Sequence record: NC_105514.1
Strand: one strand, 5' to 3'
Origin: Escherichia phage JLBYU40
Length of the DNA stretch: 64,000 nucleotides
This document shows positions 16-40,507 of this stretch, one piece after another; the stretch's first letter is position 1; each line of letters begins with the position of its first letter. A program made the translations under genes and the position numbers. The notes under the pieces were generated by a model that searched no databases, was not told the origin of the DNA, and saw only the letters and a list, made by a program, of their open reading frames with translations.

Positions 16-750
16 TTACGCAACTTTTAATTTCTCAATATATTGTTGCGGGCTGCAACTATATTCTGCGCGTTCTTCTTCGGTCATACCTTCCCAACAT
101 AATTGCAGGCGGTCGGCTAGGAACTGATAATCATTATCATCCTCAAGAGATTCATCAATAAAGGTTTCACCTATCAATGTCACGCCGATTGATAGAATAT
201 CGTTAACGGCTTGCGCATCCAGCGTTTTAAATCCGTATGATGCCGCCGCTGATAGCACGCCTTTATGATCATCAATCATTGTAAAATCAGCGTTCGGATA
301 TAATTGTTTAAATAATTCAAAATAATAAGATTTATATACTGCGTCCTTGCTGTGGTATATTTCGCTAACCTTATCAGCTTCAAAATATTTGTGTAGTGTA
401 TCGCGGGAAAATACACGGATATTACTATCCCCACGCCCTCGCAATCCTTGTTTACGCAAATAATAATAATCCGACTTGCTCATCAGTCGAGCGGTACAGA
501 TAATGTTTAACGTGTTAACATCATTCATGCACTGGCGCATATATGTAACAAGGGGCAATAGTGTATCTTGCATTATTAAATCATGTTTGCAGGCTTCATT
601 TTTATACTTATTTAAATCTAAATTGCCCTCGCTATCAAAGCAAGGCGCTACACGATGAAACGAATTAATGATAGTGCCGTCCAGATCCCAAATCATGACG
701 CGGGAAATATGCGGGAAATTACGGGTAATATTCGTTTTAACTTGATTCAT
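16..750 (-). CDS. dmp: HAD-superfamily phosphatase, likely 5'-deoxyribonucleotidase (T5 Dmp-like)
   Basis: 244 aa; N-terminal IWDLDGTI (HAD DxDGT motif); first gene of a dmp-A1-A2-like array. Confidence 0.6.
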   Translation of the reverse strand: MNQVKTNITRNFPHISRVMIWDLDGTIINSFHRVAPCFDSEGNLDLNKYKNEACKHDLIMQDTLLPLVTYMRQCMNDVNTLNIICTARLMSKSDYYYLRKQGLRGRGDSNIRVFSRDTLHKYFEADKVSEIYHSKDAVYKSYYFELFKQLYPNADFTMIDDHKGVLSAAASYGFKTLDAQAVNDILSIGVTLIGETFIDESLEDDNDYQFLADRLQLCWEGMTEEERAEYSCSPQQYIEKLKVA

Positions 751-830
751 TTTGTTACGTTCTCCATTTAAGGGATTAGATTAATTCAGCATTACCCGCT
801 ATTTATAAGCGGGTAATAATAAATTAACTA

Positions 831-1223
831 TTAAAGACCATAAGCCAACGCATCAGCGATAAAACTAACATCTTCACCCGATACACTGGAACGAATCCCC
901 GCACAAGTATATACTTTTGCGCTGATCAATTGATCATCAAGACAAGCGGGGCAAGGCGCGACAACTGCAAAGGCTAGGCCGGATTTTACGGCGTCGATGA
1001 TAATCGTTTCTTGTTTCACCGTGTCAACATAAACGCCTGCGGCCTTAATGTAACTACTTGCGCGGCCTTGCGTATAGGCAAAGGTAGTAACCTGCAAAGC
1101 GTCATTAAAGTCTAGTAGTTCATCAATAACGTGCCCTGCCTCGACGTGGTAACGTTCGCCGTTAGAATAAACCAGAACAATTGAGGACTGAGCGCGATCG
1201 AATGGAATATTTTGCTTTTTCAT
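831..1223 (-). CDS. hypothetical pre-early protein
   Basis: 130 aa ORF, co-oriented and tightly packed with neighbours. Confidence 0.45.
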   Translation of the reverse strand: MKKQNIPFDRAQSSIVLVYSNGERYHVEAGHVIDELLDFNDALQVTTFAYTQGRASSYIKAAGVYVDTVKQETIIIDAVKSGLAFAVVAPCPACLDDQLISAKVYTCAGIRSSVSGEDVSFIADALAYGL

Positions 1224-4864: not shown

Positions 4865-5581
4865 AATTTTTAAAGAGCGTGGCGGTAAACTTCCCGCCGT
4901 GTAGTTCGTCATTGCCGCCCTACGAGGTAAATACTAGCAAATACCAAAAATGGCGCAACCTTATTTTTGTAAAGAAACGTAAAGACACGATTCACCGGAT
5001 GGCGTGCGGCGACCTGGGCGCGGCGCATTAAAATTAAAGGAAACGGGCGCGCGAATACCACAAAACATAGCAGATAGGCAAGTAATTTTTTCATTTATAT
5101 TTGCTTTGCCCTACTTGACAAAATCTAAAAAGCTCAGGGTAGCGATAAACGGGCTATCCCTTTATGATGGGATGCCTGAAAAATTTACCGCGTCAGAAAG
5201 CGTTTTAGGCGGCTTATTTTCGATTTAACAAATATTTAACAAAAGCAAAATTGAAAAATAGTTGAAAAAGGTCTTGACTTTTAAAAATCAAGACTAAACG
5301 AGTTATTTTATAAAATTAATTAATTGACTTTTGTTTGTTGTTGTGTATTAGAAAGATAGCAGACTAATAATTACTAGAATGATAATCATGCTGGTGGATT
5401 GTAACAGCCTGAACCATTAGCAGACTATTAATCACGGAAAATCTCATTAGCCAACTAACTATTTCATGATATATAATATACTTATAAATTAATGAGAAAT
5501 AATAAGTATAATAAATAATAACTACAGTAAATAATAACTATAAGAAATTATCGGCCTAAGTGAGAACCACTATCATTTAAG

Positions 5582-5689
5582 TTATCCACAAGTTTATTAA
5601 CAGCACAAAATGATTTGACACGATAGGCGGCGATATAAAGACTTATCTACAGACTTATCCACAGGTTATCCTACTGTATAAATATACAG
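5582..5689. repeat. left arm of ~110-bp imperfect inverted repeat with DnaA boxes
   Basis: TTATCCACA at 5582-5590 and 5655-5663, TTATCTACA at 5643, palindrome CTGTATAAATATACAG at 5674-5689. Confidence 0.65.
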
Positions 5690-29934: not shown

Positions 29935-30010
29935 TGGAGCGGCTAGAGGGAATCGAACCCTACTCAGCGAGGCTTGGAAGGCCTGCGGCACAACCCGTAT
30001 GCTTAACCGC
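29935..30010 (-). tRNA. tRNA-Gly (TCC)
   Basis: acceptor GCGGTTA/TAGCCGC, T-arm GGTTCGATTCC, CCA, anticodon loop CTTCCAA. Confidence 0.55.
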
Positions 30011-30018
30011 TTATTATT

Positions 30019-30485: not shown

Positions 30486-30853
30486 AATTGAAAACTCGCA
30501 GGGTTAGCGAAACCATCCTCAATTAGCATGTTCTAGAATACTAATCAAGTTATCTCCTATTGCACGCAGCTCAAGACGAGTACGAATTTTCAATTGTGGC
30601 GGCTCTCCGAAACTCTTCTACTCTAGCCTTAGCAGCTTACTCCCGAACGCATGTCGGGAAAGTCTTACTAAGAGCATCAAATAGCACCGTTACACTTTGA
30701 GCCATTGATGTATCAAGGAATAGAAGGACTTGAACCTTCATGAGTTAGACCATTTAACTCAACCGCTTTTAAGGTATATTTCTAGGAGTGGATGTTCCTA
30801 GTAAACCTATTGGGCAGTCCCGTCTACCAATTCCGGCATATTCCAAGAATTAT

Positions 30854-31105
30854 TTAAAACTTATAGCCTTCAGGAACCTTATCTTTAACACCGTCATACT
30901 TAGCCTGAATGTAGTAGTCTGGTACATGATCTTTTGGCAGATTTTTATTAGTATCATGAACCTCAGCTCTAGCTTCTTCTTCAGAATCAAAGCCACGATA
31001 CCAGATTTCACCGCCCCACCCACGTTCACTTTCAGTATACTTAACAATATGTTTCATAAGGTTTTCCTTATAAGTTGGAGGAAGGTAATGGAGTCGAACC
31101 ATCAC
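30854..31105 (-). CDS. hypothetical protein
   Basis: 83 aa ORF between tRNA blocks. Confidence 0.45.
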   Translation of the reverse strand: MMVRLHYLPPTYKENLMKHIVKYTESERGWGGEIWYRGFDSEEEARAEVHDTNKNLPKDHVPDYYIQAKYDGVKDKVPEGYKF

Positions 31106-31172: not shown

Positions 31173-31263
31173 TGGCGGAAGAGGAGAGATTTGAACTCTC
31201 AAGCCGTTTTACCAGTCAGCCACTTTCCAAGCGGTTTTCGTCGCCAATTCGATTTGCTCTTCC
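31173..31263 (-). tRNA. tRNA-Ser (GGA), type II
   Basis: perfect acceptor, T-arm GAGAG-TTCAAAT-CTCTC, CCA, long variable arm; 4-bp anticodon stem with one G-U, loop TTGGAAA. Confidence 0.45.
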
Positions 31264-31299
31264 AATAATAAGATGATGCCTCTATCACACCAGGCAGTT

Positions 31300-31372
31300 A
31301 CGCCTCGCTGGGATTCGAACCCATTAAAACAGCTCAACCGAGATAGTAGGTTTAGTTTACTCTGACCATCAA
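31300..31372 (-). other. tRNA-like element (T-arm only)
   Basis: canonical T-arm (rc of CTGGGATTCGAACCC) in a slot between two tRNAs, but no complementary acceptor or anticodon stem found. Confidence 0.2.
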
Positions 31373-31375
31373 ATT

Positions 31376-31452
31376 TGGTGCGTGACAAGGGATTCGAACC
31401 CTCAAAACCCGACTTCTAAGGACGGTATGTATGCCAATTCCATCAATCACGC
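31376..31452 (-). tRNA. tRNA (anticodon TAG, Leu-type; short variable loop)
   Basis: good acceptor, T-arm, CCA; anticodon stem has one U-U mismatch, loop CTTAGAA. Confidence 0.4.
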
Positions 31453-31531: not shown

Positions 31532-31769
31532 AAATTCTTTAGTTTACTAAGGCTATTAGCTCGGCGTAACTACAGCACCTTCGCTTCGAGCGGAAGTAAC
31601 CGCGTCATCTCGCAAACCCGATACACTATTCAGTTGCCGCTGAATCTAGTGGACTAATCTAGAACCTCTCCCAAATCGTAGGGATCGTGCTTTTTGGCAG
31701 CCAGTCCTAGGTCGAGCTAATACCTTAGTGAACTATGATGAGGATTTCTCCTCATCAATTTATATAAAT

Positions 31770-32246: not shown

Positions 32247-32619
32247 AATATTATTTCTTTAACCACAGCAAAGATAAGCCCAGCATACTAAAACCGCTAA
32301 CTAATCCGATACATTTTTCTTCTATAGTAAAAGTATCTAGATTAAATGCTGTTATAGCTATTGGCATACACCATAATGCCATAAAAACTTGAGATATCTT
32401 GTGTTTCATTTTGCTTTCCTTCTCTTCACTTTATAAAATATATTATACAGATAATAAAGCAGAATAGCAAATGAATTTTTAATAAATTTACTTATTGTGT
32501 AGGCCACCTGGAGGCTACCAACCCCACGGCTGACAAAGAAGTTTGCGAGACCTCTCTTAAATGCCAGAATAGACCCGCCGGTCTATCGGAACCTACATAA
32601 TAAGTAAACTTTATAGTGT

Positions 32620-32740
32620 CATTCTAGACAGGACTCGAACCTGTTATCACTTGTGCGGACTTACGAGAACCATTCTTTCACTCGAATCGAACGAGCTTCT
32701 GCCCCCGCCAAGCTGGTTTCCCCATCAACCACGCTAGAAT
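32620..32740 (-). other. oversized tRNA-like element (~120 nt)
   Basis: canonical T-arm (rc of ACAGGACTCGAACCTGT) but the only complementary acceptor partner lies ~115 nt away; no CCA. Confidence 0.2.
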
Positions 32741-36148: not shown

Positions 36149-36226
36149 TGGTGGCTCCCCGAGGATTCGAACCTACGTACCTTCCGGTTATGAGCCGGGT
36201 GCTCATACCATATGAGCTTGAGAACC
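36149..36226 (-). tRNA. tRNA (anticodon CAT; Met, fMet or Ile2)
   Basis: acceptor with two G-U pairs, D-arm GCTC/GAGC, anticodon loop CTCATAA, CCA. Confidence 0.5.
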
Positions 36227-40435: not shown

Positions 40436-40507
40436 TACCGACCGTAGGATTCGAACCTACATCTTCCACCAGTTACGGCTTGATAATACCAATTATACTA
40501 GGACGGC
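40436..40507 (-). tRNA. tRNA, anticodon unresolved
   Basis: perfect T-arm, acceptor with one U-U mismatch, no encoded CCA; no convincing anticodon stem by eye. Confidence 0.3.

Follow-up and report, generated by a model that had tools for sequence, protein, structure and literature searches.

Known tRNA-like RNAs

The YrlA-type design combines the top half of a transfer RNA (tRNA) with a closed acceptor end. YrlA RNAs (Rfam RF02553) consist of a 5′ motif, V, T, a closed 'AS' stem-loop and D, in this order, and are recognised by tRNA enzymes (Chen et al. 2014, PMC4201824). In M. smegmatis, the AS loop is cut by ribonuclease P (RNase P; M1 RNA) and CCA is added in vivo, while S. Typhimurium YrlA and D. 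radiodurans Yrn1 are uncleaved (PMC4201824). Here we analysed a stretch of 64,000 nucleotides (nt) from Escherichia phage JLBYU40 (NC_105514.1), called the window below, and describe an element of about 102 nt (31274-31375, minus strand) in its tRNA cluster that follows a similar plan without being a member of the YrlA family.

Small tRNA-like RNAs of unknown function are also found in phage tRNA clusters: species 1 RNA (rnaC) of T4 and RNA1, RNA2 and RNA3 of T5 and BF23. They possess a canonical T-arm, and the phages can do without them in the laboratory. A further tRNA-like arrangement is that of permuted tRNA and transfer-messenger RNA (tmRNA) genes, whose hallmark is a T-arm followed by the 3′ strand of the acceptor, a short linker and the acceptor 5′ strand. 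T5-like phages serve as models and are often considered for therapy and biocontrol, and current work examines their tRNA clusters as a means of counter-defence.

A structured element between two tRNA genes

The region around the element shares 92-97% identity with T5-like phages, among them Salmonella phages S130/S131, T5_ev219 and OSYSP, and on this similarity we place the window phage among the T5-like members of the family Demerecviridae. The element is neither a tRNA nor a decaying tRNA pseudogene. It is not the latter because it is conserved above the adjacent real tRNAs and because helices that a tRNA does not have covary in it. We read it as a functional, selected, tRNA-derived structured RNA that acts in trans as a tRNA mimic, and we give this reading as a whole an even chance of being correct. 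For its structure, a three-way junction, we have high confidence, as the comparative support is good.

An earlier note on this DNA had described a T-arm in a 73-nt slot between tRNA-Ser(GGA) and the TAG tRNA, without any complementary acceptor or anticodon stem. The T-arm is indeed canonical (UGGG-UUCGAAU-CCCA, minus strand, 31309-31323) and its location is as described, but the gap between the neighbours measures about 110 nt (31263 to 31376). The absence of a cloverleaf was likewise borne out. Complementary stems do exist, however, with partner strands at 31274-31299; they were missed because the interval considered (31300-31372) splits the loop of helix P4 and omits the 3′ strands of P4, P1b and P1a.

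Read on the minus strand, the slot is AAUUUGAUGGUCAGAGUAAACUAAACCUACUAUCUCGGUUGAGCUGUUUUAA-UGGG-UUCGAAU-CCCA-GCGAGGCGUAACUGCCUGGUGUGAUAGAGGCAUCAUCUUAUUAUU. The element starts right after the CCA of tRNA-Leu(UAG) (31376-31452, minus strand) and runs to the 3′ strand of P1a. A variable spacer (31264-31273, minus strand) lies between it and a tRNA-Ser(GGA)-like gene (31173-31263, minus strand, recognised from annotated homologues). The ends of the unit were placed at 31375 and 31274 because three different upstream tRNAs across phages are each followed by the same AAUUUGAUG, and because similarity to relatives with another downstream neighbour stops right after ...GGCAUCAU. A covariance model, R1, matched 31264-31375 (minus strand) at 120.1 bits; nowhere else in the window did it match over its full length.

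The window contains 23 copies of the T-loop motif GGTTCRANYCC, all of them on the minus strand; 0.22 copies are expected by chance. The copy in the slot is one of the few lying outside predicted tRNAs. It has all the tRNA T-arm features (G53-C61 and U54 U55 C56 R57 A58). The rest of the slot did not resemble a tRNA to any tool. ARAGORN found neither a tRNA nor a tmRNA in 31264-31375, and Rfam gave no tRNA, tmRNA or YrlA match in the slot, whether 12.5 kb were searched at E<=5 or just the 131-nt slot at E<=10. When a cloverleaf was forced by hand, nothing upstream was complementary to CGAGGCG. The best candidate for an acceptor 5′ strand, UAUCUCG, paired with two wobbles and one mismatch and had no counterpart in Sugarlandvirus. 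Open reading frames (ORFs) in the element are only short ones running into tRNA genes, so that there is no plausible coding sequence in the slot.

Distribution and conservation

About 250 phage records contain the 110-nt slot. In about 190 genomes of Tequintavirus and Epseptimavirus, among them BF23 and Yersinia phiR2-01, its identity is 97-100%. Copies in Klebsiella Sugarlandvirus have 73-82% identity, and that of Pectobacterium phage DU_PP_V (L023) shares about 78-80% with the T5-type copies. Through a shorter match, copies were found in the T4-like Roskildevirus, namely Erwinia phage IT22 and a relative (L010). A looser DNA pattern revealed one further copy in a 373-kb jumbo-phage contig, L038 (IMGVR_UViG_3300045988_180118); this copy had no match by BLAST against the phage collection. 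All other matches to the looser patterns in viral contigs were false positives in tRNAs or coding sequences. Outside the phage records, a bacterial scan with one genome per species gave 8 pattern matches, of which 0 had the fold, 5,426 E. coli genomes held no copy, and a metagenome scan gave T5-type copies only.

Every copy found sits within a tRNA cluster. The immediate neighbours vary: a coding sequence lies downstream in DU_PP_V and TrudiRoth and tRNA-Met in IT22, and the L038 copy is in an interval between a coding sequence and a terminator.

Among 28 distinct T5-type regions, the element had a mean pairwise identity of 98.8%, somewhat inflated since the loci were picked by an exact 27-nt core, and 10% variable columns. 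In the same regions, the upstream tRNA reached 78.6%, the downstream tRNA-Ser(GGA) 92.1% and the outer flanks about 62%. Locally, no other segment is as well conserved among T5-type phages as the element.

Although it is among the most conserved sequences of the T5-like tRNA cluster, the element has no Rfam family and is not annotated as an RNA in any of the phage records listed. Most of these leave the place blank, and a few overlay a 'hypothetical protein'; the element accounts for this recurrent gap or spurious protein in T5-like genome annotations. The best-annotated records, those of T5 and BF23, are also without it, and we found no description of it in the literature.

Two of the distant loci have further features of their own. 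In L038, the cluster with the divergent copy also contains an ARAGORN tRNA (5521-5592, plus strand) with a four-base anticodon (gtag), whose identity was undetermined. In IT22 (L004), a long hairpin, AUUGAUAGCAGUG...CACUGUUAUCAAU, lies upstream of the element copy (about 680-870, minus strand). The hairpin is preceded by a 50-nt stretch that resembles what immediately follows rnaC in T4-like phages, a place to which some records assign a terminator. In IT22, the element may belong to a more extended RNA region that is without annotation.

Parts of the element

At its 5′ end, the element has AAUU (31372-31375, minus strand, as are all parts), the start of an AU-rich AAUUU directly after the upstream CCA and a putative site of RNase E-type trailer cleavage. 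These first five columns (AATTT in the DNA) are invariant in 16/16 Demerecviridae sequences. The closing helix begins with P1a, in which UGAUG (31367-31371) pairs with CAUCA (31274-31278), the last conserved bases of the element. P1a is paired in 100% of the alignment cells; one U-A pair is U.G in DU_PP_V, and Roskildevirus has AGUGC/GCACU instead.

The 5′-side internal loop that follows (31351-31366; GUCAGAGUAAACUAAA) is variable in length (7-16 nt) and sequence. It shows free substitutions, such as G, U or A at 31366 and C, U or A at 31355, and insertions or deletions between lineages. Helix P1b is formed by a 5′ strand at 31342-31350 (CCU at 31348-31350, a bulged A at 31347 and CUAUC at 31342-31346) and the 3′ strand GAUAG-AGG (31279-31286). 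It is 100% paired in Demerecviridae, with three two-sided changes (UA/GC, UA/CG and CG/UA) and wobble intermediates. In Roskildevirus, the corresponding strands are GUG(A)CUU and GAG-CAC. The bulged A is thus retained in both groups, while the closing helix of L038 has no bulge.

The joiner J1 (31324-31341, 18 nt) contains a conserved GG (31338-31339) and a conserved ...CUGUUUUAA (...UUUAA) before the T stem; its invariant columns in alignment A3 are G38, G39 and C45-A53. Similar joiners are GGAAAUACGGUUUAA in Roskildevirus and AUAGGGUUUAA in L038. The T-arm itself (31309-31323) has the stem UGGG (31320-31323)/CCCA (31309-31312) and the loop UUCGAAU (31313-31319). The stem covaries (UA/CG and GC/AU, with a GU intermediate), and the loop is invariant at U54 U55 C56 G57 A58.

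Directly adjoining the T stem is P4 (31289-31308), a closed hairpin in the position of an acceptor stem, with the loop GUAACU (31296-31301). From its base, the pairs are G31308.U31289, C-G, a G.G mismatch, A-U, G-C, G-C and C-G. The G.G mismatch was present in 18/18 sequences; beyond it, four to six Watson-Crick pairs are found across lineages, with covariation (AU/GC and CG/GC) and one GC to GU change. The loop motif (R/U)UAAC is retained in every lineage, including L038. A 2-nt joiner, J3 (GU, 31287-31288), leads from P4 back to P1b.

Comparative evidence for the fold

The four helices were first proposed by eye from a comparison of the T5-type, Sugarlandvirus, Pectobacterium and T4-like Roskildevirus copies. 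For quantification, we used an alignment (A2) of 18 distinct sequences that was segmented by hand and padded with N, because plain MAFFT misaligned the 5′ part. In A2, 94.9% of the cells were in standard pairs, compared with 37-45% when the partners were slid by 1-3 columns. Two-sided changes were seen in 15/23 pairs. The covariation score was 0.431, against at most 0.10 in the slid controls, and 0/500 shuffles attained the observed values.

Since the Roskildevirus P1 strands had been placed by eye so as to pair, the count was redone on Demerecviridae alone, where the alignment is unambiguous. The result was similar: 95.4% of the cells were paired, compared with 35-45% after sliding. Six pairs had two-sided changes, three in P1b, two in the T stem and one in P4. 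Wobble intermediates were also found, with C-G to U.G at 31350, U-A to U.G at 31343 and G-C to G.U in P4; Klebsiella phage B01 has a G.U in the T stem.

RNAalifold, given the alignment alone, returned the same four helices and an extra G-U/C base pair, 31308/31289, that joins P4 to the T stem with zero linker. The L038 copy follows the same plan: its closing helix is continuous, with 9 base pairs (bp) (UUAACUAUA/UAUAGUUAA), J1 is longer, and P4 has 8 bp and the loop GUAACA. The copy is followed by a terminator-like hairpin, and this layout suggests a self-contained RNA.

Two other pairings were considered and rejected. A hairpin resembling a D-arm, UGAU-AGAGGC-AUCA (31274-31287), would compete with P1 and had no two-sided change; its second pair is mismatched in 6/16 Demerecviridae sequences, and it is broken in the Sugarlandvirus and Pectobacterium copies. 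A stem CAGAG/AGCUG (CAGUG/CACUG in Sugarlandvirus and Pectobacterium), which would form a pseudoknot with P1b, shows no compensatory change and, in the T5 type, only 3 Watson-Crick pairs.

Comparison with known tRNA-like RNAs

The order of parts in the YrlA RNAs, with a T stem-loop followed by a closed AS stem-loop and a closing stem from the 5′ and 3′ ends, is found here as the T-arm, P4 without a linker, and P1a/P1b. The two kinds of RNA also share a variable region, a canonical T-arm, a loop-closed stem-loop at the acceptor position, a size of about 100 nt and an occurrence in phages, and the T-arms of both are expected to be recognised by tRNA enzymes.

They differ in several respects. The element has no YrlA match in Rfam even at E<=10 on the 131-nt slot, and it lacks the near-invariant D stem-loop that lies 3′ of AS. 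The motif GNCGAAN0-1G, which YrlA RNAs carry near their 5′ end as a putative Ro60/Rsr contact, is absent from the T5-type copies: the 5′ internal loop is GUCAGAGUAAACUAAA in the T5 type and GUCAGUGAAA in Sugarlandvirus, and only Roskildevirus has a near-match (CCCGAAAAG). The element sits inside a tRNA operon. YrlA RNAs are encoded no more than about 4 kb from a Ro60 (TROVE) gene on the same strand; no such gene was found here, as there is no ORF of >=250 aa (amino acids) within 4 kb of the element. The four ORFs of >=400 aa in the window are ribonucleotide reductases, an origin-binding-like protein or without a Pfam match, and none is TROVE. The element is therefore not a member of the YrlA family. 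On this structure, the YrlA-type design has arisen or spread beyond the Ro60 context, within phage tRNA operons.

With T4 rnaC and with RNA1, RNA2 and RNA3 of T5 and BF23, the element shares the location in a phage tRNA cluster, the canonical T-arm and the dispensability. The T5 and BF23 stable RNAs are annotated in the records of these phages; the slot element is not annotated there and is absent from T5. T4 rnaC and the RNA2 homologue in the window differ from it in having normal topology, with an acceptor-like stem made of their own 5′ and 3′ ends. Between R1 and T4 rnaC, only the T-arm matched (15 nt, model positions 54-68, 12.3 bits). With the T-arm as sole match and a different topology, homology to rnaC was rejected.

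The order of T-arm, acceptor 3′ strand, loop and acceptor 5′ strand is that of permuted tRNA and tmRNA genes, but the anticodon arm, D-arm, encoded CCA and tag reading frame are lacking. The sequence offers no way to form a D-arm or an anticodon loop; its flanks make up a 13-bp bulged helix instead. ARAGORN, which detects permuted tmRNAs, reported nothing in the slot, and there is no sign that the loop is opened. A tmRNA is also contradicted by the small size, the lack of an ORF and the lack of an Rfam match. To a canonical tRNA (RF00005), the element is similar in its T-arm sequence, in the stacking partner and in its location on the same strand of a tRNA cluster, and different in having no cloverleaf, anticodon, free acceptor end or model match.

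The earlier note had also raised the possibility of a minihelix-like RNA. A linkerless hairpin of 7-8 bp that could stack on the T-arm is indeed present. It is not a free minihelix: the helix is loop-closed and a third helix is formed from the 5′ and 3′ flanks, and we therefore describe the element as a three-way-junction tRNA mimic. We rate it as a new conserved non-coding RNA of a known kind, that of the tRNA-like RNAs of phage tRNA clusters, with YrlA-type topology.

Possible origin, processing and role

In our structural model, the topology corresponds to a circularly permuted top half of a tRNA, with the RNA ends emerging at the position of the anticodon stem. P4 can stack on the T-arm as the acceptor stem does in tRNA, with its end closed by a loop and no free 5′ and CCA-3′ ends. 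Such an arrangement may have originated when a tRNA gene was duplicated in tandem: at the junction, the acceptor 3′ strand of the first copy would be complementary to the acceptor 5′ strand of the second.

No minus-strand promoter or terminator was found near the element in the window. Since it has none of its own, it is probably transcribed with its tRNA neighbours, within a polycistronic tRNA transcript. Processing of pre-tRNAs in E. coli involves RNase E in the trailer and RNase P at the 5′ end of the tRNA. By analogy, an enzyme of the RNase E type would cut in AAUUU behind the upstream CCA, and RNase P at the 5′ end of the downstream tRNA; together they would free a compact, presumably stable RNA of about 100 nt that displays a tRNA elbow and a minihelix surface. 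Its T-arm is a predicted substrate of TruB and TrmA, and the GG of J1 might mimic G18G19 of the D-loop at the elbow. The G.G mismatch and the UAAC loop suggest sequence-specific recognition. In its most probable role, the RNA would act as a mimic, a decoy or a handle towards some factor recognising the acceptor/T-arm half of tRNAs.

The slot has been altered repeatedly in nature. In T5 (L028, 2023-2607), the element is missing and the HNH endonuclease gene hegC (F-TflI) fills the slot precisely, the 3′ end of hegC overlapping tRNA-Ser2; hegC is in place of the element in 27 records in total, T5 included. In SelmaRatti (L035, 237-359), a deletion by recombination between identical GGGTTCGAATCCC T-arms fused the T-arm of tRNA-Leu(UAG) to that of the element and destroyed both. 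What remains is a hybrid in which two-thirds of the tRNA, from its 5′ end, are joined to the 3′ half of the element; it scored 43.5 bits with R1. In TrudiRoth, a G-to-A change breaks the last T-stem pair, and an ORF of 231 nt is inserted directly behind the element. The slot is a hotspot for insertions.

Several of these and other observations weigh against a functional RNA that acts in trans. The element is dispensable, as illustrated by T5 and SelmaRatti. The BF23 tRNA-region record NC_042564 annotates eight stable RNAs, as well as promoters, terminators and ribosome-binding sites, yet its 112-nt slot is blank. As this region was annotated by experts, the element is not among the classically detected abundant RNAs, and the RNA may be short-lived or cis-acting only. 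As for the structure, besides the hand placement of the Roskildevirus strands mentioned above, few independent lineages lie behind the covariation (T5-type, Sugarlandvirus/Pectobacterium, Roskildevirus and L038). Single-sequence folding was no more stable than that of shuffled sequences (z = -0.03), so that the structural case rests on the comparative data. The length of P4 varies from 7 to 9 pairs by lineage, and exact mimicry of a tRNA acceptor is not guaranteed.

The main rival to a trans-acting mimic is a module acting in cis on the folding and processing of the polycistronic pre-tRNA, which would fold by itself, prevent mispairing of the two rather unusual neighbour tRNAs, set the RNase E and RNase P sites, and be degraded once excised, without a function as a free RNA. 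Demerecviridae copies are always directly after a tRNA CCA, with the invariant AAUUU, and usually directly before the tRNA-Ser(GGA)-like gene, whose D stem is poor. The lack of a promoter or terminator of its own, the absence from the BF23 list of stable RNAs and the dispensability in T5 would fit such a module as well. However, a spacer or insulator needs no canonical T-loop, invariant G.G mismatch or conserved UAAC loop. The same module is found with other neighbours in DU_PP_V, TrudiRoth, IT22 and L038, and other tRNA junctions of the cluster lack any such element. On balance, we consider a purely cis-acting role unlikely, though clearly ahead of the explanations that follow.

A stronger form of the trans-acting mimic is doubtful. 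Here, the element would be an active player in infection, either as a CCA-tailed two-piece RNA opened by RNase P in the P4 loop or as a decoy that sequesters a host factor or immune effector specific for the acceptor/T-arm half of tRNAs. If this were true, the arms race between phage tRNAs and tRNA-targeting defences would extend to tRNA mimics that do not decode.

The two-piece precursor taken by itself is an improbable explanation. By analogy with the YrlA RNA that is cut by M1 RNA and receives CCA in vivo (PMC4201824), RNase P would cut the P4 loop, the 3′ end would be trimmed, CCA would be added, and the nicked RNA might even be charged. In the T5 type, the 4-bp T stem and 8 layers of P4, counting the G.U, add up to the 12-layer stack that RNase P measures, and the 4-nt loop UAAC is where N73-CCA would be. 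The stack, however, has 11 to 13 layers depending on the lineage, CCA is not encoded, and an invariant G.G mismatch lies within the helix. Moreover, the YrlA of S. Typhimurium and Yrn1 of D. radiodurans are not cleaved (PMC4201824).

Marginally less probable again is conservation at the level of DNA, in which the slot would be the target of a homing endonuclease, or a site of recombination, within a mosaic region, and the RNA structure would be incidental. The exact occupation of the slot by hegC, the ORF inserted right after the element in TrudiRoth, the recombination between neighbouring T-arms in SelmaRatti and the mosaic flanks with three different upstream tRNAs could be explained in this way. 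It would not explain the paired compensatory substitutions in three helices without a disrupted pair in Demerecviridae, nor the recurrence of the fold in Roskildevirus and L038, whose sequences are quite different; in addition, homing endonucleases exploit conserved sequence and do not create it.

A decaying tRNA pseudogene with the T-arm as sole survivor, which the earlier note had favoured, agrees with the lack of an ARAGORN or Rfam cloverleaf and with a probable derivation from tRNA, the T-arm and stacked helix being arranged as at a tandem-duplication junction, but is very improbable given the 98.8% identity (n=28) above that of the adjacent real tRNAs, the retention in about 250 phage records across several genera and families, and the compensatory changes in helices foreign to tRNA.

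The trans-acting mimic that we favour is accessible to experiment: the element is a small, tractable RNA for the study of non-decoding tRNA mimics, with natural 'knock-outs' (T5 and SelmaRatti) and carriers (BF23 and the BASEL phages).

Neighbouring genes and other tRNA-like sequences

ARAGORN predicted 22 tRNA genes in the window, every one on the minus strand, and Rfam added a few more. The tRNA-Ser(GGA)-like gene downstream of the element was overlooked by ARAGORN and scored only 19.7 bits, against the tRNA-Sec model; its D stem is unpaired. Its homologues are annotated as tRNA-Ser in BF23, T5 and T5_ev219, and according to the BF23 and T5 records, an anticodon swap in the homologue gave no suppressor. 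It may be a non-standard or non-functional tRNA.

The upstream neighbour, tRNA-Leu(UAG), is 77 nt long and without the long variable arm usual for tRNA-Leu. The same position is occupied by a classical 85-nt class II tRNA-Leu(UAG) in T5 and some relatives, and by a third kind of tRNA 3′ end in L008/L025. According to the BF23 record, the short form acts as a suppressor once its anticodon is replaced.

Other parts of the cluster correspond in position to the T5 and BF23 stable RNAs. A long unannotated stretch from tRNA-Ala to tRNA-Lys (about 31540-31740, minus strand), with no Rfam match, is equivalent to 'RNA2H, stable RNA with unknown functions', and a strong hairpin, UGAUGAGGA...UCCUCAUCA, is found at 31736-31757. 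The tRNA-like sequences at about 30486-30870 and at 32560-32720 (both minus strand) are equivalent to RNA1 and RNA2, and the canonical T-loops at 30726-30736 and 32631-32641 fall outside predicted tRNAs. The RNA2 homologue (32560-32720) has an open acceptor-like stem, CAUUCUAG/CUAGAAUG, beside its T-arm, a topology unlike that of the slot element.

Three tRNA-like matches on the minus strand were found by Rfam and missed by ARAGORN. One, at 40436-40500, scored 22.8 bits with the tRNA model and was cut at the edge of the searched stretch. The others, at 36152-36226 (40.3 bits, tRNA model) and 29938-30011 (29.6 bits, tRNA-Sec model), are, going by position, probably T5 tRNA-Ile2(CAU) and tRNA-Gly(UCC), respectively.

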